Shown: piece after piece, positions 4,076 through 49,445 of the stretch
Position numbering within the stretch: the stretch's first letter is position 1
Layout of the letters: every line of letters begins with the position of its first letter
From: Eledone cirrhosa
Taxonomy: Eukaryota
Assembly: GCA_964016885.1 (NCBI GenBank)
Contig: OZ024743.1
Location: 151,652,001-151,716,000, forward strand
Direction: 5' to 3'
Length of the DNA stretch: 64,000 nt
Position numbers and translations under genes: made by a program
The notes under the pieces: model-generated
Told to the model about the DNA's origin: nothing
The model's input: the letters and a program-made list of their open reading frames with translations, nothing else
Database searches by the model: none

Positions 4076-4520
4076 ATGCAGTAATACAGAAGACCCACCT
4101 TCCCATGGGCATAGGCTGAAGCAGAAGAATATTTATGATATGCACCACCCCACCCCATCCCCCATAAGGACAGGCTGAAGCATACATCTACTGAAGCCTC
4201 CAGCCCACACTGTAAAGTGGTTGTGATGGTAACATGGCAAAAAGCCCCCAGCCCACACTGTAAAGTGGTCATGTAGGTGTTACCACAAAAAGCACCCAGT
4301 CCACACTGTAAAGTAGTCATGTAGGTGTCATGACAAAAAGCACCTAGTACTCACTGTAAATAAGGTTGGTGTTAAGAAGGGCATCCGGCTGTAAAAACGA
4401 AGCCAAAATCGGTTCTGTATGAGCAAGACTTGGTCACCTGACCTAGCATTATTCAGAACAGGACAATTCGTCTAACCCATGCTAGTGTGGGGAAATGGAC
4501 ATTGAACGGTGATGATGATA
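4076..4520 (+). mobile_element. Non-autonomous retroelement family C with ~3-4 internal ~48-bp units and RTE-like 3' tail ending (GAT)n
   Basis: Same 5' start (ATGCAGTAATACAGAAGACCCA), internal units (AAAAGCACCCAGTCCACACTGTAAAG) and tail (GGTTGGTGTTA.GAAGGGCATCC...AACCCATGCTAG...GATGATGAT) as the element at 39526. Confidence 0.8.
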
Positions 4521-4645: not shown

Positions 4646-5530
4646 CAGGGTGCGGACGATATCTGTTTGCAAGATTACTGTCCAGGAAAAAATAACACAG
4701 TAGTTTTATTTTTTAAGATTTATTTATCAAACTTGTGTCAGTTTGTCTTCATGACTTGTTCTTTCGATCTCACTCGATAAACCCGCCATTGGCTTTGATG
4801 ACGGCCCCAAGGCGGCCTCGGAACCGGCTACAGGCCTTTGTCACTGTCCCCCGACTTAGGCCCCTAAAGGCACTTGTGACTGGCCTTCAGAACGTCTTTC
4901 GTATTGCAGCTAAATCTGTTGGTGTCTCGTTCCACTGCACCCCACACAAAGAAGACAAGGAGATTGCAGTCAGCCGAGTTGGAAGGCCAGATATCAGGTG
5001 AAGTGTGGTCGACGAAGTTCTCTGACAGCCAGGCTTGTGTCTTTCGGCTGGTATGGCAGAGTGCTGAGTCTTGCTGCCACACGTACGGCCTACCTGGTCG
5101 ATCCAGGGCTTTACTACCTCGCTCAGAACGCAGATGTAGCCATCGGTGTTCAGCTTGAGGCCCTCAGGGAAGAAGTGAGGTGGCATGACGTCACCGTGAC
5201 TGCTGACGACACCCAAGACCAATGTTGTCACTGGAAACTTTGTCACATCTTTGGAAACTCTGGGCACATCTTTGGATGAGACAGCGAGCCATCTGTTGTC
5301 TGGGAGTTGATCTTCTGGTCTTCTTTGTCCTCCCGGCGCAGACTCCAACAAGAACTCCGTGTCTCTTCCACAAATTTGTAGGTTCAAAATTATTCACAAT
5401 CAACCATTCCGAAAACAAATAATGGAAACACAGTCACTGTCTTTATGAAGACAAGAGTGACAAAGGAAGTAAAAAAATTTTGCATAAAATTAGCAGTTGA
5501 AAATTGCGAACAAATATCTACCGCACCCTG
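4646..5530 (-). mobile_element. Internally deleted Tc1/mariner transposon, maT (DD37D) type, with pseudogenised transposase
   Basis: TA flanks at both ends; imperfect TIRs CAGGGTGCGGACGATATCTGTTTGCAA / revcomp CAGGGTGCGGTAGATATTTGTTCGCAA; frameshifted transposase VLGVVSSHGDVMPPHFFPEGLKLN...WQQDSALCH...WPSNSADCNLL; 37 residues between QQD and the third catalytic position, now V. Confidence 0.88.
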
Positions 5531-10988: not shown

Positions 10989-11187
10989 ATACATAATATA
11001 TATATATACATATATATATAATACATATTATATTATATACATATATATATATATATAATACATATATATACATATATTATATATATATATATATTATATA
11101 TTTATATTATATATATATATATACATATATTATATATATATATATATTATATATATATATTATATATATATATATACATATATTATA

Positions 11188-11228
<41 letters not shown>

Positions 11229-12393
11229 TTATATATATATGTATATATATAATATAATATGTATATATATAATATATATATGTATATATATAATATATAT
11301 ATATATACATATATTATATACATATGTATATATATAATATTATATATATACATATATTTATATATATATATATATATAATATATATACATATATTATATA
11401 TAATATATATATATACATATATTATATATATATAATATATATATATACATATATTATATATATATATTATATATATATATTATATATATATTATATATAT
11501 ATATTATATAAATATATATACATATATTATATATATATGTATCTATATAATATATATATATACATATATTATATATATATATATAATATATATATATATA
11601 CATATATAATATATATATATATATAATATATATATATACATATATTATATATATATACATATAATATATATATATACATATATTATATATATATACATAT
11701 ATTATATATATATACATATATTATATATATATAATATATATATATACATATATTATATATATATAATATATATATATACATATATTATATATATATAATA
11801 TATATATATACATAATATATATATATACATATGTTATATATATATACATATATTATATATATAAATACATATATATATATACATATATTATATATATATA
11901 CATATATTATATATATATACATACATATATTATATATATACACATATATTATATATATAAAAACATATATATATATATTATATATATATATATACATATA
12001 TTATATATATATACATATATTATATATATAAATACATATATATACATATATTATATATATATATTATATATATATATTATATATATATATTATATATATA
12101 TATATACATTATATATATATATATATTATATATATACATATATTATATATATATATTATATATATACATATATTATATATATATATTATATATATACATA
12201 TATTATATATATACATGTATATATATATATACATATATTATATATATATATGTATATATATAATATATATATATACATATATTATATATATATATTATAT
12301 ATATATATATATAATATATATATATACATATATTATACATATATATATATATATAATATATATATATACATATATTATATATATATATACATG

Positions 12394-12432
<39 letters not shown>

Positions 12433-12464
12433 TTATATTATATATATATAATATATATATATAC

Positions 12465-12502
<38 letters not shown>

Positions 12503-12565
12503 TTATATATATATATATATATATATACATATATTATATATATATATATAATATATATATATACA

Positions 12566-12605
<40 letters not shown>

Positions 12606-12644
12606 CATATATTATATATATATATATAATATATATATACATAT

Positions 12645-12690
<46 letters not shown>

Positions 12691-12897
12691 TTATATATAT
12701 ATATATAATATATATATATACATATATTATATATATATACACATATATTATATATATATATATATAATATATATATATACATATATTATATATATATCAG
12801 GAACGATCGACTTTCGTCAAATCGGACCGAGGAAACAATGCTTTCATTGGTCCTTTCCAATTGCTAATACTATCTATCGGTCGCAACTCCAGTAGAA

Positions 12898-12990
12898 GGA
12901 GCAACGTGAAATAAAGTGTCTTGCTCAAGGACATAACGCATCGCCCGGTCCGGGGATCGAACTCACCATCTCACGATTGCGAATCAACAT
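12898..12990 (-). mobile_element. 5'-truncated SINE family B fragment
   Basis: Minus strand GATTCGCAATCGTGAGATGGTGAGTTCGATCCCCGGACCGGG...GTCCTTGAGCAAGACACTTTATTTCACGTTGCTCC. Confidence 0.8.
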
Positions 12991-13339
12991 CTCATCAGCA
13001 ATATTTACCTATCCTCGGCCTTTCTAGAGAATCGTAAAAGCACATATCGTTATATGCTTTTTCTATGAAAATTAGTAGTGGGCAGACTAATTTGCATAGA
13101 GCGTGAGTACGTACCGGTTCATCGGAGACGATAAAAACACATAACGAAACGAAATTAAATTTCGTTTCGTTTGTAACTCACTTTTGTATGACTGACGCTT
13201 AAACAATTAAGTTAAAAATGTACGCTCTATGCAAATTAGTCTGCCCACTACTAATTTTCATAGAAAAAGCATATAACGATATGTGCTTTTATGATTCTCT
13301 AGAAAGGCCGGAGGATAGGTAAATATGCTGATGAGATGT
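12987..13339. repeat. Long inverted repeat: ~118-bp arms (12987-13104 / 13222-13339) with an inner 14-bp palindrome (13143-13171)
   Basis: Arms are near-perfect reverse complements; inner AACGAAACGAAATT-A-AATTTCGTTTCGTT. Confidence 0.93.
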
Positions 13340-13368
13340 AACAACATCGAAACTAGTCCAATATTCCT
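13317..13368 (+). ncRNA. Minimal type I hammerhead ribozyme (copy 1)
   Basis: CTGATGA (13328-34), helix II GATGT/ACATC, GAAA (13349-52), palindromic helix III ACTAGT, GUC cleavage triplet (13356-58); helix I AATATG/CAATATT, which is a perfect AATATTG in the inverted arm. Confidence 0.8.
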
Positions 13369-13616
13369 GTCTGGCTTTCTGGAGAATAGAGGAAAGGTGT
13401 TTCCTCGAAAACCAGTATGACTCTAAAAACCGGTTTGTCTGTGTGTTTACATACAGAATAGCTGAACACTCACAGTAAAGTGTCCAGTGAAAAACTCGGT
13501 ACATCTACATATGTACACGTGCGTGTATTCATATGCATACTAGTATTTCAGTATACATATGTGGATGTACATTTTTAACTTAATTATACATTTTTAACGT
13601 ATATACATATATATAC

Positions 13617-13647
<31 letters not shown>

Positions 13648-13955
13648 CATATATATATCTATATACATATATATATATACATACATATATATACATATAT
13701 ATATATATACATATATATATATACATATATATATATACATATATATATATACATATATATAGTAATAATAATAAAATTGAAGACTAAAATCCAATGAGGG
13801 CTCGATAAGGAAAATATATATCAAATATATAAGAACCGAAGAGCACATATTTATTAAAATAACAGATTGAAGTTTAAGCAAAGAATCGCTGCTGTTTTTT
13901 GAAATATCCAGTACTGCGTTTACAGATTGACTTTATATATATATACAGATTGACT

Positions 13956-13986
<31 letters not shown>

Positions 13987-14483
13987 TATATACATATATA
14001 TACATATATTATATATATATATATATACATATATTATATATATATATATATACATATATTATATATTATATATATACATATATTATATATATAATATATA
14101 CATATATTATATATATATATATACATATATTATATATATATATATATACATATATTATATATATATATTATACATATATTATATATATATATATACATAT
14201 ATTATATATATATATATACATATATTATATATATATATATACATATATTATATATATATATATATTATATATATATATACATATATTATATATATATATA
14301 CATATATTATATATATATATATATACATATATTATATATATATATATATACATATATTATATATATATATATACATATATTATATATATATATATATATA
14401 TACATATATTATATATATATACATATATTATATATATATTATATATATATATATATATATACAATATTATATATATATACATA

Positions 14484-14519
<36 letters not shown>

Positions 14520-14556
14520 CATATATATATACATATATTATATATATATAATATAC

Positions 14557-14587
<31 letters not shown>

Positions 14588-14710
14588 CATATATATATAT
14601 ACATATATTATATATATATATATACATTTACAAAATCTATATATGTTATATGTGTATGTGTATTTTATCTGTCAATTTGTATATATACATATATATATAT
14701 ATACATATAT

Positions 14711-14760
<50 letters not shown>

Positions 14761-14965
14761 CATATATATATTATATATATACATATATATATATATATTA
14801 TATATATACATATAATATATATACATATATATATATATACAATATATATTATATATATACATATATATATATACATATATATATTATATATATACATATA
14901 TATATATACATATATATATTATATATATACATATATATATATACATATATATATTATATATATAC

Positions 14966-15048
<83 letters not shown>

Positions 15049-15180
15049 CATATATGTATATATATACATATATGTATATATATACATATATAATATATAT
15101 ACATATATGTATATATATACATATATATATATATACATATATATATATACATATATATATATACATATATATATATATAC

Positions 15181-15243
<63 letters not shown>

Positions 15244-15385
15244 CATATATGTATATATATACATATATATATATATATACATATATGTATATATATACAT
15301 ATATGTATATATATACATATATATATATATATACATATATGTATATATATACATATATGTATATATATACATATATATATATTAC

Positions 15386-15444
<59 letters not shown>

Positions 15445-15477
15445 CATATATATATATACATACATATATATATATAC

Positions 15478-15508
<31 letters not shown>

Positions 15509-15620
15509 CATATATATATACATATATATACATATATATATATACATATATATATACATATATATATATACATATATATACATATATATATATATATATA
15601 CATATATGTATATATATACA

Positions 15621-15835
<215 letters not shown>

Positions 15836-15944
15836 TATATATATATATATACATATATATATATACATATATATATACATATATATATATACATATATAT
15901 ATATACATATATATATACATATATATATATATATACATATATAC

Positions 15945-16049
<105 letters not shown>

Positions 16050-16076
16050 CATATATATATATACATATATATATAC

Positions 16077-16145
<69 letters not shown>

Positions 16146-16159
16146 CATATATATATACC

Positions 16160-16194
<35 letters not shown>

Positions 16195-16310
16195 CATATA
16201 TATATACATATATATATATATATACATATATATATACATATATATATACATATATGTATATATATACATATATATATATAATATACATATATATATATAT
16301 ATACATATAT

Positions 16311-16352
<42 letters not shown>

Positions 16353-16492
16353 ACATATATATATACATATATATATATATATACATATATATATACATAT
16401 ACATATACATATACATATATATATACATATATATATATATACACATATACATATACATATACATATATATATACATATATATATATATACAC

Positions 16493-16544
<52 letters not shown>

Positions 16545-16550
16545 ATATAC

Positions 16551-16615
<65 letters not shown>

Positions 16616-16745
16616 CATATATGTATATATATACATATATGTATATATATACATATATATATATATACATATATGTATATATATACATATATATATATAT
16701 ACATATATATATATACATATATATATATTACATATATATATATAC

Positions 16746-16808
<63 letters not shown>

Positions 16809-16895
16809 CATATATGTATATATATACATATATATATATATATACATATATGTATATATATACATATATGTATATATATACATATATATATATAC

Positions 16896-16952
<57 letters not shown>

Positions 16953-17013
16953 CATATATATATATACATACATATATATATATACATATATATATATACA
17001 TATATATATATAC

Positions 17014-17044
<31 letters not shown>

Positions 17045-17156
17045 CATATATATATACATATATATACATATATATATATACATATATATATACATATATA
17101 TATATACATATATATACATATATATATATATATATACATATATGTATATATATACA

Positions 17157-17398
<242 letters not shown>

Positions 17399-17463
17399 CA
17401 TATATATATACATATATATATATACATATATATATACATATATATATATACATATATATATAC

Positions 17464-17568
<105 letters not shown>

Positions 17569-17595
17569 CATATATATATATACATATATATATAC

Positions 17596-17670
<75 letters not shown>

Positions 17671-17683
17671 CATATATATATAC

Positions 17684-17718
<35 letters not shown>

Positions 17719-17791
17719 CATATATATATACATATATATATATATATACATATATATATACATATATATATACATATATGTATATATATAC

Positions 17792-17826
<35 letters not shown>

Positions 17827-17833
17827 CATATAT

Positions 17834-17875
<42 letters not shown>

Positions 17876-18015
17876 ACATATATATATACATATATATATA
17901 TATATACATATATATATACATATACATATACATATACATATATATATACATATATATATATATACACATATACATATACATATACATATATATATACATA
18001 TATATATATATACAC

Positions 18016-18067
<52 letters not shown>

Positions 18068-18099
18068 ATATACATATATATATATACATATATATATAC

Positions 18100-18131
<32 letters not shown>

Positions 18132-18153
18132 ATACATATATATATATATATAC

Positions 18154-18202
<49 letters not shown>

Positions 18203-18280
18203 TATATATACATATACATATACATATACATATATATATATACATATACATATACATATATATATACATATACATATACA

Positions 18281-18381
<101 letters not shown>

Positions 18382-18385
18382 ATAC

Positions 18386-18417
<32 letters not shown>

Positions 18418-18519
18418 ATACATATATATATACATATACATATATATACATATATATATATATACATATACATATATATATACATATACATATATATATA
18501 CATATACATATATATATAC

Positions 18520-18583
<64 letters not shown>

Positions 18584-18685
18584 ACATATATATATATATA
18601 CATATATATATACATATATATAATATATGTATATATATAATATATGTATATATATATAATATATATATATATATATAATATATAT

Positions 18686-18717
<32 letters not shown>

Positions 18718-18766
18718 ATATATATATATATATATAATATATATAATATATATATATATATATATA

Positions 18767-18937
<171 letters not shown>

Positions 18938-19160
18938 CATATATATACATATACATATATATACATATACATATATATATATATACATATACATACATAT
19001 ATATATATATACATATACATATATATACATATATATATATACATATACATATATATATATACATATACATATACATATATATACATATACATACATATAT
19101 ATATATATACATATACATATATATACATATATATATATACATATACATATATATATATAC

Positions 19161-19203
<43 letters not shown>

Positions 19204-19241
19204 ACATATATTATATATATATACATATATTATATATATAC

Positions 19242-19274
<33 letters not shown>

Positions 19275-20073
19275 CATATATATATTATATATACATATAT
19301 ATATATATACATATATTATATATATACATATATTATATATATATATATTATATATATACATATATATTATATATATACATATATATTATATATATATATA
19401 TTATATATATACATATATATTATATATATACATATATATTATATATATACATATATATTATATATATACATATATATTATATATATACATATATATTATA
19501 TATATACATATATATACATATATTATATATATATATACATACATTATATATATACATATATTATATATATATATATACATATATTATATATATACATATA
19601 TTATATATATATATATACATATATTATATATATATATATACATATATTATATATATACATATATATACATATATTATATATATACATATATATATACATA
19701 TATTATATATATACATATATATATACATATATTATATATATACATATATATATACATATATATACATATATTATATATATACATATATATATACATATAT
19801 ATATACATATATATACATATATTATATATATACATATATATATACATATATTATATATATACATATATTATATATATACATACATTATATATATACATAT
19901 ATTATATATATACATACATTATATATATATATATATATATATATTATTTACATATATATATATACATATATATATTATATATATATATATATATATACAT
20001 ATATTATATATATATATATATACATATATTATATATATATATATATACATATATTATATATATATACATATAT

Positions 20074-20575
20074 ATAAGTATGTACATGTACATACATATA
20101 TGTATACAGACGTACTAAGAGTGGGAAATAAAATTTCGTTTCATTATTTCCGTTTATCGTTTTTGGTGCACCCGGCCGATTAACCCACTCGATATGCAAA
20201 TTGGCCTACTCAGCCGTTAATATGCATAAGGTAAGTATATACGTTCAACAATCCGGCAGGAAGGTATACGTTGCTGACGATAGCTAATAAGCTTGAAACT
20301 AGTACAGCGTTCCTTTGTCAGTGTTGAACAAAAGGGCAACGATGGTTGCTAAACACTGTACGGCTTAATACGGGATGTTTGTTTACAAACAGACCGAGCA
20401 TTATAATAAATGTTCGGTGAATCTATACATACATATATATATATATGTGTGTGCATGTATATATATACTACTGTACGTCTGTATACATATATGTATGTAC
20501 GTGTACATACTTATCTTTAAGTAACAGCCGTACTAAGAGTGGGAAATGAAATTTCGTTTCATTTTTTCCGTTTAT
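20074..20575 (+). mobile_element. Penelope-like/retrozyme-type non-coding element: 418-bp monomer, 47-bp partial tandem repeat, 42-bp inverted 5' segment
   Basis: Direct repeat 20111-20157 = 20529-20575; inverted repeat 20074-20115 / 20473-20514; internal hammerhead. Confidence 0.7.
20261..20315 (+). ncRNA. Minimal type I hammerhead ribozyme (copy 2)
   Basis: CTGACGA (20274-80), helix II AGCT/AGCT with a U.U first pair, GAAA (20295-98), ACTAGT, GUA triplet (20302-04); helix I ACGTTG/CAGCGT extended by AAGG/CCTT. Confidence 0.75.
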
Positions 20576-20587
20576 ATACATATATGT

Positions 20588-20659
20588 GATGTGTTGGTGT
20601 AAATGGTGGCACAGTGGTCTGGATAACCAAAGATGTGGGTTCGACTCCCATGTACATCA
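20588..20659 (+). tRNA. tRNA-like gene, pseudogene or SINE head; anticodon GGA; short variable loop
   Basis: 72-nt cloverleaf: acceptor GATGTGT/GTACATC, D stem GTGT/GCAC, anticodon loop CTGGATA, T arm GTGGG-TTCGACT-CCCAT; T5 run at 20669-20673. Confidence 0.6.
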
Positions 20660-20748
20660 ATACTCATCTTTTTCCATTTATGTGAGGGTTTTAAACCCCA
20701 TTATCAGGCTAAAATTCCTTTAGTAAAATAATACGGTGAAAGCTATTC

Positions 20749-20756
<8 letters not shown>

Positions 20757-20782
<26 letters not shown>

Positions 20783-20787
20783 CATAC

Positions 20788-20875
<88 letters not shown>

Positions 20876-21115
20876 GACAGACACATATATATATATATAT
20901 ATATATAGTAAATGAAACATATATATATGTACATACATACATATATTATATATATATATATACACACACACACAGACAGACACACACAGACATGCACATA
21001 TATATATATATATATAGTAAATGAAACATATATATATGTACATACATTATATTATATATAGACGTTTCATTTACTATATATATATATATATATATATATA
21101 GTAAATGAAACGTCT
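20757..21115. repeat. TA/CA compound repeat with duplicated TAGTAAATGAAAC units and a perfect hairpin at 21060-21115
   Basis: AGACGTTTCATTTAC-(TA)n-GTAAATGAAACGTCT. Confidence 0.85.
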
Positions 21116-21182
21116 TTTTAAGAAATGGGTAATAAAGGAAAAGACCTATTTCTTTTCAAATCTGTATCTCTGAAGTGATTAC

Positions 21183-21278
21183 TTCTGCCATTGACTGCAG
21201 GGTTTTGTAAGGTGACAGTAGAATATGGAAGGAGGTAGAATATGAAGCTTTCGGTGAGAATTACAAGTAGCCATGGAT
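21183..21278 (-). other. Candidate exon of an unidentified minus-strand transcript
   Basis: tctttgttttag|ATCCATGGCT...GGCAGAA|gtaatc; open in two frames; no homology recognised. Confidence 0.25.
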
Positions 21279-28880: not shown

Positions 28881-29052
28881 ATATTTAATATAGAAATGGG
28901 TTCTACAGGACTAGAACTGTTTCATTCGAAAGAAATCATCAGGAAAGCCCTGATGATTTCCTTCAAATGAAACAGTTCTAGTCCTGTAGAAGCCATTTCT
29001 ATATTAAATATTTATACTCTGCTATGTATTGAGTACCTTACTTACTGTGGTT
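28881..29052. mobile_element. Palindromic element (63-bp arms 28881-28943 / 28949-29011) with hammerhead-like cores on both strands
   Basis: Near-perfect inverted repeat; each arm reads outward CTGATGA-T-TTC-loop-(G/A)AA-T-GAAAC. Confidence 0.6.
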
Positions 29053-31671: not shown

Positions 31672-33668
31672 AATAATAATGAAATTATTGTGTACAGTGC
31701 TCAGGTGCACTACAACTCATCAAAGGTGCATGTATAGTACATAGAATAATATACAAATGTCAGGAAAATGAACAGTGTATGAGTCATGATATACACACAG
31801 AATATCAGGTGTAGTGTTGGCGAATTTTGAGAAGCATGGAGGTTTTGAAAGATGCAGTGTCCCGACAGCTAACAACTTATGCAGGTAGTTTGTTCCATGC
31901 TTCAGCAAGAAATACATGTGTGCGTGTGTATGGAGGGGGGACATCAGGTGTAGTGTTGGCGAATCTCAGGGAGCATGGAGGTTTTAAAGGATGCAGTGCC
32001 TTGATAGCTAATAACTGATGCAGTAAGTTTGTTCCATGCTTCAGCAACTCTGGGCATGAAAAAATGTTTCCGAAACTCATGGGAGCTGTGCTGTTTTCTG
32101 ACTTTGTAGGCATGCCACGTGTGTTAGACACATGGAATTCAAAAAGGTGTTCAGCGTTGTTGTTGGCAAGATGGTTAATAATTTTGTGGGTGTTTACCAA
32201 GTCAGTTGCTAGACATCGGAGCTTCAATGTATCCATTCCCAGGGAAGCAAGGCGTTCAGAGTATAGTAGGCCTGATGGAGGGTATTCAGTTGGCTGCATG
32301 TCTCTGAACAGTTTCCAGGAGGTCAATGTTCTGAGCAAGATAGGGGTTCCAGACTGGTGATGCAAATTCTAAGTATGGCCACACCATAGCTATATATATA
32401 GCTTTAAATAGATAGCTGGAGAGCGGCTGACAAAGGTCTTGCTGAGTGATGCTAAGACACCCTCGGCCTTCTTGACAATTTTAGAGATTTGCTTCATCCA
32501 ACGCAAATTGCTGGTGACAGTAATGCCCAGGTCGCGTTCACAAGAAGACTTCTTGATATTAGTGTTGTGGGGGGAGTATGTGGACGCTGGGTTTTTACTC
32601 CCAAAATGCATGATGGTACACTTGTCCACAGCCAACATGAGTTTCCAGTCTAGGATCCATTGTTGCATTGTGTCCAGGTTAGATTGCAGGAAAGATCTAT
32701 AGTGTTCAGGATCTGTCCTTTTTATCTCAAGGTACAGCTTGATGTCATCTGCATATTTCAGTACTGTGGCATTCTTTAAGTTGGCATCTATGTCATTAAT
32801 ATATGCAACAAACAAAATGGGGCCAAGAACAGATCCCTGTGGTACACCAGATGACATCTCATACGGTGAGGAATGCTGTCCTAGAATTGTGCCTACCTCT
32901 CTTTGACTGAGAATAAAGGACTTCAACCAGTTAAAAACATCATCCTTCACACCCATTGCAGAGAGTTTTGCCATAAATCTTTTGTGTGGCACAGAATTGA
33001 AAGCTTTAGCAAAGTCAAGGTAAAGAACATTCACCCATGAGCCGCCATCAGTGATCCGGGTGATGTCTTCAAGAAACTCGATAAGTTGATCACAGCAGCT
33101 AGAGTTAGGGATAAATCCAAATTGCGAGGGTCGGATAAGACTGTGAGAGTTCCAAAAGTTCCAAAGTGTTTCTCTGACACAGGATTCCATCAGTTTGGCA
33201 ATGCAGCTAGTAAGACTGACTGGATGATAGTTAACAGGTGATGTGCAGTCACCCTTTTTGAACAGAAGAATGACACTGGCAGTTTTCCACTGCTCTAGAG
33301 TAGCACCGTTGTTCAGACAGAATTGGAAGAAGCATGATAGCTGGTGCAGAAGAAAGTACCCACAACGTTTGAGAAGCAGGAACGTAACACCATCAAGATC
33401 AGGAGAGGTATGGTTGTGTTTATTTTTAAGGTGGCATCGCAACATTGCAGGTGTAAATTTCATAGTTGTAATAGAATCTGATGTCAGAGGTGGTGGAGAC
33501 GGTACACTCTGGTCTTCAAGAATGAAAATGCCTGCATAACATTCAGCAATGAGTTCTGCACATTCCTTGGGGTCGTCAGTAACCTGGCTTGTGTGGGGAT
33601 TGCGAAGAGGACCAACTGGAGAGTGAGGCCTCTGCTTTGAGTGAACCTACTTCCAGAACACCTTACTG
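31672..33668 (-). mobile_element. 5'-truncated CR1-clade LINE with a duplicated 3' segment and (ATT)n tail
   Basis: RT ORF plus frameshifted C-terminus (YSERLASLGMDTLKLR); 3' block repeated at 31804-31908 and 31944-32047. Confidence 0.9.
32390..33463 (-). pseudogene. Reverse transcriptase domain of the CR1-like LINE (fragment)
   Basis: Motifs NYHPVSLTS, QFGF, YLDFAKAFNSVPH, GVPQGSVLGPILF, KYADDIKLY, ERDLGI. Confidence 0.92.
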
Positions 33669-36439: not shown

Positions 36440-37227
36440 CTAATCAGTTATCAAATACTGTAGCCCCTGTACTCTCACCATGTTTTATTGTTACAATGCT
36501 TGTATTGGTGGATGGTTCTTATAAGTATGGTACATTGCTGGACAGTCAATCCTTTGTTATCTCCTTTGTGATGTTCAGTTTCATAAAGCCATTCTTCACA
36601 TATTTGTTCCATGTCTTTCCTGGTCTCCATCTCCACTGCAAGTGCTCGGCACTCTTTTTATACAACTATCGCTCTCCTTCCATATCACAAGACCATACCA
36701 GTGCAATCATCTCTCTTGCATGCTAAATTGAATTCATCTTATGTTCACTTATGCTTTGTTGTGCATGCATGCCCATTTCTTTCTAGCCCCCAGAAATCTT
36801 CTGCACTCAAAGCCCACATCTCACTGCAGCATTGCAGTTCAAACATATGTATCATGTATAATTCAGTGAACCTTCTGAACTTTTGAAAGAATTCATTACT
36901 TGAGTACTCTGACTGCTCACTATTTCTGTGCATCTGCCATATACAATCTATTTTTCCTGTCATCCTACATTTGACCCCACAACATCTCTAGTATGTCCAC
37001 AATCTACATTGGATACACCATATGGAATTCTTACCTACTCCTTTTCTACACATTAAACCCAGCCATTTTTTTGCTGGTAGCAGAGTCCTATTCTTTTTTC
37101 TCCTGACTAAAACTTTAGTTTTTGCTAGATTTACTTTGAGGCCCTTTGTTTCCAAATTTTGCTTCCATGTTTGAAACTTCTCTAGTTTCATTGCTTTAGT
37201 TATGAGGGCTAGATCATCAGCATAAGT
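36440..37227 (-). mobile_element. Degenerate RTE-clade LINE fragment
   Basis: YADDLALI...ETKGLKVNLAKTKVL...CRKGVGKNSIWCIQCRLW, then QER*LHWYG and RPGKTW motifs. Confidence 0.8.
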
Positions 37228-43761: not shown

Positions 43762-44107
43762 GAGGCACATGGCTTAGTGGTTAGAGCATTGGTCTTGCAA
43801 TCGAAAGGTTGTGAGTTCAATTCTCAGACCGGGTTATGTGTTGTTTCCTTGAGCAAGAGACTTTATTTCACATTGCTCCAGTTTACTCAGCTGTAGAAAT
43901 GAGAATGATAGGGCCTGGGGCCCATATCATTCCACTGCAAAGTGGTCGTGTAGGTGACACGGCAAAAAAGCACCCAGCACTCACTGTAAATGAGGTTGGG
44001 GTTAGGAAGGGCATCCAGCTGTAGAAATCAAGCCAGAATCAGTTCCCGTCCTACCCTTGCAAGCAGGTAAAAAGCGGACATAAAATGATGATGATGATGA
44101 TGATGAT
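43762..44107 (+). mobile_element. SINE family B, full length
   Basis: tRNA-like head with A/B boxes, CORE-like CCTTGAGCAAGAGACTT, family C unit and RTE-like tail with (GAT)n. Confidence 0.88.
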
Positions 44108-44642: not shown

Positions 44643-44788
44643 CATCTCTTTCTCCTTGTATAAACCTCTTGAAACTGCAAAGTCAACAGACATAAGAACT
44701 GTGTCTGTAGCCATCTTCTAATTGCTGAGTCAATGAACAATTAGAAAGGACTTAGCAAAGGAATCAAAATGAAGACCACAATGACTAG

Positions 44789-45683
44789 GATGGTGGTGGT
44801 GGTGGTGGTGGTGGTGGTGGTGGAGGTGGTGGTGGTGGTGGTGGTGGTGGTGGTAGCAATGGTTATGATAATGATGGCGTTGGTGGTGGTGGTGGTGGTG
44901 GTGGTGGTGGTGGTAGCAGTGGTTATGATAATGATAGCATTGGTGGTGGTGGTGGTGGTGGTGGTGGTGGTGGTAGCAGTGGTTATGATAATGATGGCGT
45001 TGGTGGTGGTGGTGGTGGTGGTGGTGGTAGCAGTGGTTATGATAATGATAGCATTGGTGGCGGCGTTGGTGGTGGTGATGGTGGTAGCAGTGGTTACGAT
45101 AATGATGGCGTTGTTGTTGGTGGTGGTGGTGGCGGTGGTAGCAGTGGTTACGATAATGATGGCGGCGTTGGTGGTGGTGGTGGTGGTGGTGGTAGCAGTG
45201 GTTATGATAATGATGGCGTTGTTGGTGGTGGTGGTGGTGGTGGTGGTAGCAGTGGTTACGATAATGATGGCGGCGTTGGTGGTGGTGGTGGTGGTGGTGG
45301 TAGCAGTGGTTACGATAATGATGGCGTTGTTGGTGGTGGTGGTGGTGGTGGTGGTGGTGGTAGCAGTGGTTACGATAATGATGGCATTGGTGGTGGTGGT
45401 GGTGGTGGTGGTGGTGGTGGTGGTGATGGTGATAGTGATAGTAATGATGATGTTGTTGTTGTTGGTGGTTTTGGTAGCAGTGGTTATGATAATGATAATG
45501 ATGGTGGTGGTGGTGGTGGTGGTGCTTTGGAAATAAGGATAATGATGTGGGTGGTGTCGATGATGATGGTAGTGGGACTGATGGTGATGGTGGTGGTGGT
45601 GATAGTGGTAGTAATGATGATGATAGTGTTGGTAGTAGTGGTTTTGGTGATGGTGATGATAATGGTAGTAGTGGTCGTGATGA

Positions 45684-45715
<32 letters not shown>

Positions 45716-45822
45716 ATGGTGCTGGTTGTGGTGGTGGCGCTGGTTGTGGTGGTGGTGCTGGTTGTGGTGGTGGTGGTGCTGGTTGTGGTGGTAGTGTTGT
45801 TAGAGTTGGTGGTGGTGATGGA
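44789..45822. repeat. (GTG)n/(GAT)n compound repeat with a ~55-60-bp higher-order unit
   Basis: About 10 units of (GTG)n-GTAGCAGTGGTTA(T/C)GATAATGATGGCGTTG. Confidence 0.92.
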
Positions 45823-45906
45823 GACGATGCTAAAAACTATTTTGTAAGAGGCAAATAATCCAGGAAATCAAAACAAATATTTATATTATTAGAGTTTGTT
45901 TGTTTT

Positions 45907-48900
45907 TGGTGTGGTGTGGTGTGGTGGTGGTGGTGGTGCTGTGGTGGTGGTGTGGTGTGGTGTAGTGGTGGTGTGGTGGTGGTGGTGGTGCTGTGGTGGT
46001 GGTGTGGTGTGGTGTTATGGTGTGGTGTAGTGGTGGTGTTGTGGTATGGTGTGGTGTGGTGGTGGCAGTGGTGGTGTTGTGGTGGTGTTGTGGTGTGGTG
46101 TGGTGTGGTGTGGTGTGGTGGTGGCAGTGGTGGTGTTGTGTGGTGTGGTGGTGGCAGTGGTGGTGTTGTGGTGTGGTGATGGCAGTGGAGGTGTTGTGGT
46201 GTGGTGGTGGCAGTGGTGGTGTTGTGGTATGGTGTGGTGTGGTCGTGGCAGTGGTGGTGTTGTGGTGGTGTTGTGGTATGGTGTGGTGGTGCTGTGGTGT
46301 GGTGTGGTGTGGTGGTGTTGTGTGGTGTGGTGGTGGCAGTGGTGGTGTTGTGGTGTGGTGATGGCAGTGGAGGTGTTGTGGTGTGGTGGTGGCAGTGGTG
46401 GTGTTGTGGTATGGTGTGGTGTGGTCGTGGCAGTGATGGTGGTGGTGTTGTGGTGTGGTGTGGTATGGTGGTGGCACTGGTGATGCTGTGGGGTGGTGTG
46501 GTATGGTGGCAGTGGTGATGCTGTGTGGTGTGGTGTGGTAGTGTTCTGTGGTGGTGCTGTGGTGTGGTGTGGTGGAAGTGGTGGTGCTGTGGTGCTGTGG
46601 TGACAGTGGTGGTGCTGTGGTGTGGTGGTGGCAGTGGTGATGGTGTGGTGTGGTGGCAGTGGTGGTGCTGTGGTGTGGTGTGGTGGTGCTGTGATGTGGT
46701 GTGGTGGTGGTGGCAGTGGTGGTGCTGTGGTGTGGTGGTGGCAGTGGTGGTGTGGTGTGGTGTGGTGTGGTGTGGTGGTGATGCTGTGGTGTGGTGTGAT
46801 GGTGACAGTGGTGTGGTGGTGGCAGTGGTGGTGCTGTGGTGTGGTGGCAGTGGTGGTGATGTGATGTGGTGGTGGCAGTGGTGATGGTGTGGTGTGGTGT
46901 CGTGTGGCGTGGTGTGGTGTGGTGATGGTGCGGTGCGGTGCAGTGATGGTGTGGTGTGGTGTGGTGTGGTGTGGTGTGGTGTGGTGTGGTGATGGTGATG
47001 GTGTGGTGGTGATGCTGTGGTGTGGTGTGGTGATGGTGATGGTGTGGTGGTGGTGGTGGTGTGGTGTGGTTGTGGTGTAGTGTGGTGTGGTGATGGTGGT
47101 GGCAGTGGTGACGGTGTGGTGTGGTCGCAGTGGTGGTGGTGGCAGTGGTGATGGTGTAGTGTTGTGATGGTGGTGGCAGTGGTGATGGCGTGGTGTGGTG
47201 ATGGTGATGGTGGCAGTGGTGGTGCTGTGGTGTGGTGGTGGTGGTGGCAGTAGTGATGGTGTGGTGTGGTGTGGTGATGGTGGTGGTGGTGGCAGTGGTG
47301 ATGGTGGTGGCAGTTGTGGTGGTGGTGGCAGTGGTGATGGTGTGGTGTGGTGTGGTGATGGTTGTGGTGGTGGCAGTGGTGATGGTGGTGGCAGTGGTGA
47401 TGGTGTGGTGATGGTGTGGTGACAGTGGTGGTGCTGTGGTGTGGTGATGGTGTTGTGGTGGCAATGGTGATGGTGTGGTAGTGGTGGTAGTGCGGTGTGG
47501 TAGTGGTGATGGTGTGGTAGTGGTGTGGTAGTAGTGGCAGTGGTGATGGTGTGGTGGTGTGGTGATGGTGGTGGTGGTGGCAATGGTGATGGTGATGGTG
47601 TGGTAGTGGTGGTAGTGCAGTGTGGTAGTGGTGATGGTGTGGTAGTGGTGTGGTAGTAGTGGCAGTGGTGATGGTGTGGTAGCGTTGTGGTAGTGGTGGC
47701 AGTGGTATGGTGTGGTGTGGTGATGGTGGTGGCAGTGGTGATGGCGTGGTGTGGTGATGGTGATGGTGGCAGTGGTGGTGCTGTGGTGTGGTGTGGTGAT
47801 GGTGGTGGTAGTAGTGATGGTGTGGTGATGGTGGTGGCAGTGGTGATGGTGTGGTGCGGTGATGCTGTGGTGACAGTGGTGGTGCTGTGGTGTGGTGATG
47901 GTAGTGGCAGTGGTGATGGTGGTGGCAGTGGTGATGGCGTGGTGTGGTGATGGTGATGGTGGCAGTGGTGGTGCTGTGGTGTGGTGTGGTGATGGTGGTG
48001 GCAGTAGTGATGGTGTGGTGTGGTGTGGTGGTGGTGGTGGTGGCAGTGGTGATGGTGTGGTGTGGTGGTGGGAGTGGTGATGGTGGTGATGGTGGCAGTG
48101 GTGATGGTGGTGGCAGTGGTGATGGTGATGGTGGTGGCAGTGGTGATGGTGTGGTGTGGTGATGGCGGTGGTGGTGGCAGTGGTGATGGTGTGGTGTGGT
48201 GATGGTGGTGGTGGTGGCAGTGGTGATGGTGGTGGCAGTGGTGATGGTGTGGTGACAGTGGTGGTGATGGTGGTGGTGGTGGCAATGGTGATGGTGATGG
48301 TGTGGTAGTGGTGGTAGTGCGGTGTGGTAGTGGTGTGGTAGTAGTGGCAGTGGTGATGGTGTGGTAGCGGTGTGGTAGTGGTGGCAGTGGTGATGGTGGT
48401 GGCAGTGGTGATGGCCTGGTGTGGTGATGGTGGCAGTGGTGGTGCTGTGGTGTGGTGATGGTGGTGGTAGTAGTGATGCTGTGGTGTGGTAACAGTGGTG
48501 GTGGTGGTGGTGGCAGTGGTGATGGTGTGGTGTGGTGATGGTGGTGGTGGTGGTGGTGGCAGTGGTGATGGTGGTGGCAGTGGTGATGGTGTGGTGATGG
48601 TGTGGTGACAGTGGTGGTGCTGTGGTGTGGTGATGGTGGTGGTGGCAATGGTGATGGTGGTAGTGGTGGTAGTGCGGTGTGGTAGTGGTGATGGTGTGGT
48701 AGTGGTGTGGTAGTAGTGGCAGTGGTGATGGTGTGGTAGCGGTGTGGTAGTGGTGGCAGTGGTGATGGTGTGGTAGTGGTGCTAGTGGTGATGATGTGTG
48801 GCAGTGGTAAAAGCATGGTATGGTGTGGTGTATTAGTGGGGATAGTGGTGATGGTGTGGTGTGGTAGTTGTGATGGTGTAGCAGTGGTGATAGTGTGGTA

Positions 48901-49146
48901 GTGGTGGTAGTGGTGATGATGTGGTAGTGGTGGCAGTGGTAATTGTGTGGTAGTGGTGGTAATGGTGATGATGTGGCATTGGTGGTAATGGTGATGATTT
49001 GGTTTGGCCGTAGTGATAGAGTGGTATGGTAGAGGTGGCAGTGGTGATGGTGTGGTGTGGTAGTGGTGATAATATGGTGTGGTAGTGGTGTGGTAGTGGT
49101 GGTGATGGTATGGTATGGTAGTGGTGATGGTGTGGTGTGGTAGCAG
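45907..49146. repeat. 3.2-kb GGT/GGTGT/GGCAGT complex satellite
   Basis: G/T-rich + strand built from GGT, GGTGT, GGCAGTGGTGAT modules. Confidence 0.95.
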
Positions 49147-49252
49147 TGAGCTAATCTTGGATTAACATTTAATTTTGAAATAATATAAGCAACAACCATA
49201 ATAACAATTACATTGTAGGAAAATGTGACTAAAATATCATTATTTAGAGAGA

Positions 49253-49445
49253 GGGCAGTGGATTGGCAGTATCGGTAGAGGGTCGGACGCCATGCTTTGG
49301 CGCATTGAGTTACGGCCCTTGCCATTCTGAGTTCAAATCCTACCGAGGTTAACTTTGCCTTTCATCCTTACGGGGTCGATAAAATAAAGTACCAGTAATA
49401 CACTGGGTAATTGCTGGCCTTGTGCCTAAAGTAGAAACAATTATT
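49253..49445 (+). mobile_element. SINE family A, full length with TSD
   Basis: ATTATTTAGAGA on both flanks; B box GAGTTCAAATCC. Confidence 0.9.

Follow-up and report, generated by a model that had tools for sequence, protein, structure and literature searches.

A two-armed Penelope-type insertion of a non-autonomous, retrozyme-like hammerhead repeat in Eledone cirrhosa

INTRODUCTION

Short non-coding repeats that carry a type-I hammerhead with a very short helix III occur in dispersed or tandem form as the SINE-like repeats of flatworms and as satellite 2 of newts. In L1 twin priming, two primers from both target strands copy one RNA, and the inverted 5' part is joined by microhomology. Craig et al. 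2021 (PMC8557442) describe insertions of Penelope-like elements (PLEs) as 5'-truncated, with partial tandems that form pseudo-LTRs and a 30-40-bp tail that is often found at one end only; at the 5' end there is an inverted copy, which is itself 5'-truncated. For Naiad and Hydra elements a bias toward (TA)n is reported, and palindromes where the inverted copy is joined are described both there and in Arkhipova et al. 2013 (PMC3846280). A lizard PLE acts in vitro on AT-rich sites, where both strands are cut and extended, and reverse transcription (RT) starts at two adjacent internal sites, the interval of which is the tail; start-site use is alike on both strands, and the RNA is used unprocessed, ribozyme cleavage not being required (Frangieh et al. 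2024; PMC11167929). The transposition cycle of PLEs is understood in part only, and what their hammerhead does is an open question.

Animal non-LTR retrozymes, as defined by Cervera and de la Pena 2020 (PMC7229834) and by Li, Clavereau and Pollet 2026 (bioRxiv 10.64898/2026.07.22.740005), are argued to be non-autonomous PLE derivatives copied from circular RNA. Among the papers listed by a limited literature search on retrozymes in cephalopods, octopus or squid, none contains the term retrozyme, and PMC7229834 mentions neither octopus nor cephalopod. In this study, we analyzed a 64,000-nt stretch of genomic DNA (the window), in which the segment 20074-20575 is a two-armed Penelope-type insertion of a non-autonomous, retrozyme-like hammerhead repeat. 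Everything seen falls inside the published PLE/retrozyme frame; it adds to the known picture and opens no new one.

MATERIALS AND METHODS

The unit is 20158-20575, and the unit coordinate u is the window position minus 20157. Copies were collected from the 3.0-Gb genome to which the window belongs, with a 305-nt core query (sample 1), which spans the unit junction and is thus biased to longer-than-unit copies, and with u148-258 (sample 2), which is less biased. For the census of ends, both samples were pooled (54 loci, 94 arms), and the unit was mapped onto each locus. These 54 loci and the approximately 19 loci of the sister family described below are top-scoring matches and not a random sample.

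Removed as duplicates were L011, L022, and L023 (the 2.27-kb higher-order repeat of L010), L026 (the same as L025), L079 (the same as L078), and L051 (the window copy itself). Removed as noise were matches within the microsatellite-like u240-376 at <85% identity, matches of <50 bits, pieces of <=70 nt within u260-345, and sister-family copies in L013. The boundaries of both window arms, of the 5' end of the plus arm of L006, and of the minus arm of L008 were set by hand. In the sister family, the plus arm of L098, which runs past the locus end, was left out, and the minus arm of L106, which is whole in L107 and ends at b409, was added.

RESULTS AND DISCUSSION

Structure of the insertion

The segment consists of two head-to-head arms in TA-rich surroundings (Table 1). 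The long arm measures 465 nt, or 1.11 units (u372-418 followed by one full unit), and has its tailed end at 20575, while the 42-nt short arm has its tail-less end, at u357, at 20074. A repeat search returned 20106-20157 and 20524-20575 as a direct repeat of 52 nt with 94% identity and a spacing of 418, the 47-nt version of which (20111-20157 and 20529-20575) is 95.7% identical. The inverted 42-nt piece, 20074-20115, is the reverse complement of 20473-20514, and when extended it pairs 20065-20115 with 20473-20523 (51 nt, 92%). These repeats are not due to chance; the 418-nt unit recurs across the genome. The original prediction, made from the letters of the window, had described the unit, its 47-nt terminal redundancy, and the inverted 42-bp piece of its own 3' part, all of which were recovered here. 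Its summary of the segment as a monomer with terminal redundancy is right in that the copy is longer than one unit, but the segment is better read as two arms, each from a fixed RT start site, joined at a GTAC palindrome.

Identical copies of ATACATATAT lie on both sides of the insertion, at 20064-20073 and 20576-20585; the pair is a weak candidate for a 10-bp target-site duplication, and the left flank is a TATACA-type microsatellite. The unit lacks coding capacity: no stop-to-stop frame in a trimer of the unit exceeds 53 aa, no open frame for an RT-endonuclease (RT-EN) is found in the unit, and its GC content is 0.37.

Table 1. Features of the insertion and of its hammerhead-like motif, in window coordinates
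Feature	Position	Strand	Basis
Left copy of candidate 10-bp target-site duplication (ATACATATAT)	20064..20073	.	Identical to 20576-20585
Short inverted arm, u316-357; outer end is the tail-less 3' terminus (u357 class)	20074..20115	-	97.6% over 42 nt to 20473-20514
Arm-to-arm junction, CGTAC microhomology containing the GTAC palindrome	20111..20115	.	9/10 match to both arms over 20106-20115
Partial upstream unit u372-418, 47-nt terminal redundancy, pseudo-LTR equivalent	20111..20157	+	95.7% to 20529-20575
Full 418-nt unit, tailed 3' terminus u418, ...CCGTTTAT	20158..20575	+	Alignment of unit copies
ATGCAAAT octamer (20194-20201) and TATATA (20236-20241)	20194..20241	+	Conserved with the 465-nt sister family
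Type-I hammerhead-like motif	20262..20314	+	Pattern match, sub-threshold Rfam alignment, compensatory pairs
Helix I of the motif, plus outer AGG/CCU	20268-20273 with 20305-20310	+	
Core CUGACGA	20274-20280	+	
Helix II, U.U at base	20281-20294	+	
GAAA	20295-20298	+	
Helix III, two pairs inside the ACUAGU palindrome (20298-20303); predicted cut	20304/20305	+	
Internal microsatellite-like TA/TG-rich segment, u255-350	20412..20507	+	Many low-identity matches to flanking microsatellites
61-nt tail between both 3'-end sites, u358-418; predicted 12-pair A/U-rich hairpin at 20541-20567	20515..20575	+	
Right copy of candidate 10-bp target-site duplication	20576..20585	.	Read from sequence

The 418-nt family and its sister

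The 305-nt core query gave at least 2355 first-look candidates, and all 40 of those scored are 95-100% identical; the second query gave 710, and the 40 scored are 96-100% identical. Judged from these matches, the 418-nt unit is best described as a young, abundant, dispersed non-coding repeat family. Among the runs recorded as RNA, none contained the sequence. Contigs from the sequencing runs X8-X11 (library kind not given) include the tandem joint that steps back 417/418, and approximately 11,000-12,700 short pieces per run match the repeat in X8-X10; they reflect the repeat as such and have no bearing on expression, ends, or circles.

A second family, with a unit of 465 nt, aligns with the 418-nt unit along its whole length at roughly 65-70% identity (1085 candidates; 40 scored, 97-100% identical). 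Its anatomy is the same in kind, with ends at b465 and b386-409, head-to-head pairs, and a tail of about 75 nt. Another segment of the window, at about 12986-13590, had been taken for a further copy of the 418-nt repeat; it belongs to this sister family. It is a two-armed insertion as well, in which the plus arm ends at the tail-less site (about 13588) and the minus arm breaks off inside the hammerhead, beside a tRNA-like SINE fragment at about 12900-12985. Together, the two families amount to thousands of short insertions with base-readable ends, which is a clean natural data set on PLE priming.

The ATGCAAAT octamer, the TATA-like element, and the tail hairpin are all conserved between the two families. 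The octamer and the TATA-like element upstream of the hammerhead possibly form an internal promoter. The tail hairpin (-13.8 kcal/mol, z -1.84; z -1.90 for the equivalent hairpin of the sister family) may be a protein-binding element. The order of an octamer-like and then a TATA-like motif upstream of the hammerhead, at 20194-20241 in the window copy, is found in both repeat families, and it is similar in the coding PLE family L084, at about 4390-4450 (-).

Ends of the copies

The 3' ends of the copies are largely confined to a few positions. As many as 42 of the 91 readable 3' ends lie at u411-418 (...CCGTTTAT) and 37 lie at u352-366 (...ACATACTTAT); i.e., 79 of 91 belong to two fixed classes, u418 and u357, which are 61 nt apart and cover 23 of the 418 positions. 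The other 12 lie elsewhere, and 3 further arms are cut by the locus end. The DNA flanking the 79 canonical 3' ends is strongly AT-rich: 10 or more of the 12 nearest bases are A/T in 75 cases, and (TA)4 or longer follows the end directly in 59.

The 93 readable 5' ends are scattered across all bins of the unit, and many 5' boundaries are blurred because the segment u255-350 is microsatellite-like. Only 3 of the 93 lie within u140-156, near the predicted ribozyme cut at u147/148, against approximately 3.8 expected if the ends were evenly spread. In u362-382, 11 were counted (approximately 4.7 expected), and a single one falls in u381-418. Half of the arms in sample 2 (25/50) are longer than one unit. 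The longest arm overall measures 3.9 units, and arrays of 2 to >4 units are present among the mapped loci, as are partial tandems and head-to-tail multimers, one example being the 47-nt redundancy of the window copy.

The copies are thus 5'-truncated products of reading from two fixed starts, and often exceed one unit in length. They are not circular permutations of a monomer, an arrangement for which the original prediction had proposed to look, because the 3' ends are fixed at two sites, and the insertion ends give no sign that the hammerhead had cut the template RNA. The earlier view of a greater-than-unit insertion, moved in trans and belonging to a non-coding family with partial tandems of the Penelope type, is supported. 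At u391 (G vs A/T), a base other than G is found in 1 of 21 terminal tail copies and in 9 of 37 internal copies, a difference that we regard as suggestive.

Pairs of arms and their junctions

Among the 54 loci, adjacent arm pairs are oriented head-to-head in 31 cases and tail-to-tail in 1. Where both outer ends are canonical, one end is of the u418 class and the other of the u357 class in 19 of 20 pairs (binomial p 2e-5 vs 0.5), the exception being L025, with ends at u411 and u417. In the sister family, all 12 pairs have one end of each class, both before and after the two corrections made by eye, which brings the mixed pairs to 31 of 32 over both families. In 9 of 19 pairs, the tailed arm exceeds the other in length. 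The inner junction is different at every locus; the arms overlap by 1-18 nt in 21 of 29 head-to-head pairs, and otherwise 0-38 nt of filler is present.

Subfamily variants, scored in sample 1 only, are shared by the units and arms of one locus: concordant pairs number 43 of 50 at u194 (0.47 expected), 54 of 55 at u235 (0.69 expected), and 42 of 50 at u200 (0.71 expected). L010 is a discordant locus and may represent two separate events. The divergence between copies (same arm, 235/8574 or 2.7%; other arm, 170/5427 or 3.1%; different loci, 13925/390924 or 3.6%) does not discriminate for or against a single template, since a star-like family yields the same values.

Two simple models of how the arms arise were considered. 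The model of one RNA with a second enzyme following the first fails for the window copy, whose tailed arm measures 465 nt, compared with 42 nt for the other. The model of twin priming, in which the long arm halts beside the start of the short arm, fits the window copy and L077 but fails at most loci. The long arm of the window copy halts 14 nt before a u357 site, which is the geometry expected for two primers side by side on one RNA and resembles L1 twin priming; this geometry fits only some loci of the 418-nt family and is not general. The two outer ends also differ from those of L1 twin priming, since here both are specific internal RNA start sites rather than a poly(A) tail and a chance internal site.

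The insertions provide genomic confirmation of the two internal start sites observed in vitro for the lizard element. On the other hand, 31 of 32 pairs combine the two start sites, one for each arm, whereas the strands did not differ in vitro (PMC11167929). The strictness of this rule and the lack of ends at the ribozyme cut go slightly beyond the cited papers. Models of PLE priming are constrained by three observations, namely that the two arms of an insertion nearly always differ in start site, that they carry the same RNA variant, and that ribozyme-cut template ends have left no trace. One tentative reading, which we consider possible but doubtful, is that one dimer of a Penelope-like RT-endonuclease grips the tail hairpin of a single RNA and starts cDNA from both cut strands at once, each protomer being locked on its own start site. 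If it were true, a single coordinated double priming event would underlie both the tail and the inverted pseudo-LTR, and this tiny, abundant, young, non-coding 418-nt family would be a natural minimal substrate for reconstitution.

The hammerhead motif

The pattern CTGANGA...GAAAC has one match in the segment, at 20274-20299 (+), in keeping with the one hammerhead per unit of the original prediction, and six in the whole window, where 0.07 are expected. The motif, which occurs once per unit with its core letters intact, scores far below the Rfam threshold: a 106-nt search with Hammerhead_HH9, for which the gathering score is 52, yields 19.7 bits (E 0.006), in a register that puts the cut after A20304, which agrees with the predicted position A20304/C20305. 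No Rfam hammerhead family reaches its gathering score in the whole window, and none appears at E<=10 in a 1.7-kb search of 19500-21200.

Nevertheless, the named structure is well kept between the families. In six sequences, three per family, 96.8% of the cells pair, vs 30.5-50.6% when the 3' partners are slid. Compensatory changes between the families affect four of the 16 pairs (two each in helices I and II), although they stem from one evolutionary comparison and represent at most four independent events. The minimum-energy fold of 20262-20318 is not a hammerhead and is no better than shuffles (z -0.05), as expected of a minimal motif. At the base of helix II, an axolotl retrozyme hammerhead likewise has a U.U pair (PMC7229834).

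Self-cleavage at 20304/20305 is a prediction and is graded as such because the Rfam score is far below the threshold and helix III has 2 bp. Minimal PLE-type hammerheads are reported to cleave poorly alone (PMC7229834) or to need protein (PMC11167929). Since it holds a single hammerhead-like motif, the window copy could not itself release a monomer.

Two of the six pattern matches belong to a near-perfect palindrome at 28886-29010, with CTGATGA...GAAAC on both strands. We rejected it as a hammerhead pair of the 418-nt family; it looks like a hairpin element, and related sequences lie near the PLE loci L081 and L086. Two more matches, at 5203-5238 (+) and 37185-37220 (-), have long spacers.

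Comparison with known elements

The features shared with endonuclease-bearing PLE insertions (PMC3846280, PMC8557442, and PMC11167929) are 5' truncation, the pseudo-LTR, the head-to-head inverted copy, palindromic microhomology, a tail that lies between two fixed RT start sites and is confined to one end, AT-rich or (TA)n targets, and a minimal type-I hammerhead-like motif. Unlike PLEs, the 418-nt family has no RT-EN open reading frame, and its tail is 61 nt long, vs the published 30-40 bp.

The metazoan non-LTR retrozymes are similar in having a non-coding, low-GC (0.37 here) unit of a few hundred nucleotides with one type-I hammerhead (a hammerhead-like motif here), in ranging from monomers to multimers, and in co-occurring with PLEs. 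They differ in that the hammerhead here is of the minimal PLE kind, with a two-pair helix III in a palindrome, and not the canonical kind with loop-loop contacts. Also, most copies here are dispersed insertions of 0.1-2 units with inverted arms rather than long arrays. By description, the family also resembles the flatworm SINE-like repeats and newt satellite 2.

Mobilizing machinery and template

PLE genes are plentiful in the genome: a search for GIY-YIG/PLE genes gave 10,596 first-look candidates, all 150 of those scored are above the Pfam cut-off, and long RT-EN frames of up to 1096 aa with typical endonuclease C-termini are present. A search for a partner among 28 PLE loci (20 GIY-YIG and 8 long-frame loci) found no nucleotide similarity to the 418-nt or the sister unit beyond TA-rich stretches. 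The sole RT frame in the window, at 32393-33646 (-) (418 aa; RVT_1, E 1.2e-35), was rejected as a PLE and is LINE-like, because its relatives carry PF03372 and PF14529 (apurinic-type endonuclease).

In our preferred reading, the 418-nt hammerhead repeat at 20074-20575 was probably put there in trans by the RT-endonuclease of a PLE, from a longer-than-unit RNA. The endonuclease would cut both strands of a (TA)n-type target, and each free 3' end would prime cDNA at one of the two internal start sites flanking the 61-nt hairpin-bearing tail. The template RNA, longer than one unit, would most likely be transcribed from a tandem source copy as a multimer and used unprocessed, and the hammerhead would be part of the copied RNA. 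Both cDNA ends would then anneal via palindromic microhomology, and host repair would complete the insertion.

The principal alternative keeps the same machinery but takes as template a hammerhead-processed and ligated 418-nt circular RNA, reverse transcribed in rolling-circle fashion from the fixed start sites. Arms of up to 3.9 units, often exceeding one unit, are natural for it, as is the presence of the same variant in all units and both arms of a locus, and 5' ends that do not pile up at the ribozyme cut (3/93) fit an endless template. Arrays with at least two hammerheads that are able to release monomers do exist (L013, L028, and L057), and circular RNAs of such repeats are documented in coral, mussel, and axolotl (PMC7229834). 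We would add that, if there were no means to regrow multimers, 5' truncation would presumably shrink the copies over generations. However, a homogeneous tandem copy whose multimeric transcript stays uncut would give each of these features equally well, so that a circle joined at 20304/20305 is not required, and the motif, with its two-pair helix III, is of the kind that self-cleaves poorly as a monomer; the single hammerhead of the window copy also counts against a circle. We favor the linear multimer by analogy, because one biochemical study (PMC11167929) finds that unprocessed RNA is sufficient and that ribozyme cleavage is not needed, and we consider the circular template unlikely, although it deserves some weight.

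It is quite improbable that the repeat is a solo end-piece, i.e., a pseudo-LTR of an autonomous coding PLE, and not a separate non-autonomous family. PLE pseudo-LTRs do carry hammerheads and promoter motifs (PMC8557442 and PMC3846280), and the 3' region of the coding family L084 has a similar order of TTGCAT, TATAAAA, and a minimal hammerhead-like motif, followed by a TA-rich end that is a TATACA-type microsatellite. However, none of the 54 loci runs on into coding sequence, the arrays consist of the 418-nt unit alone, its longest open frame is 53 aa, and the 28 PLE loci share no nucleotide similarity with it. Fixed ends attached to a long coding element had been named in advance as an outcome that would speak against a circular RNA; the ends are indeed fixed, but no copy is attached to such an element.

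A satellite-like repeat that owed its spread and rearrangement to DNA-level events in a fragile microsatellite (unequal crossing-over, replication slippage, or fold-back repair) is strongly disfavored and barely credible: the element does sit in long TA/TACA microsatellites, L010, L011, L022, and L023 lie in a 2.27-kb higher-order tandem duplication that includes the element, and unit pairs of L013 with 0 differences in 318 sites fit a later duplication, but copies on many chromosomes share two exact 3' ends and have variable 5' ends, the inner junctions are unlike at every locus, the arms are head-to-head by 31 to 1, and one end of each class is found in 19 of 20 pairs.

Other features

The four loci L010, L011, L022, and L023 (G000:C3, about 294.909-294.919 Mb) lie where the element, together with its flanks, recurs at least 4 times with a period of approximately 2.27 kb; here, a two-armed insertion was included in a later tandem duplication at the DNA level.

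Directly to the right of the insertion, 20586-20755 is an unrelated 170-nt SINE with a tRNA-Ser(GGA)-like head at 20587-20660 (ARAGORN; Rfam tRNA, 46.5 bits). It has at least 1764 first-look candidates, its full-length matches are 92-95% identical, and some copies have short inverted pieces alongside. A second, weak tRNA-like match of 30.5 bits is located at 43770-43827 (+).

The tracts 13878-20118 and 44730-49361 are several kilobases of TATACA/TA/CA-type microsatellite that are open in all reading frames, and these tracts are the preferred landing sites of the repeat families.
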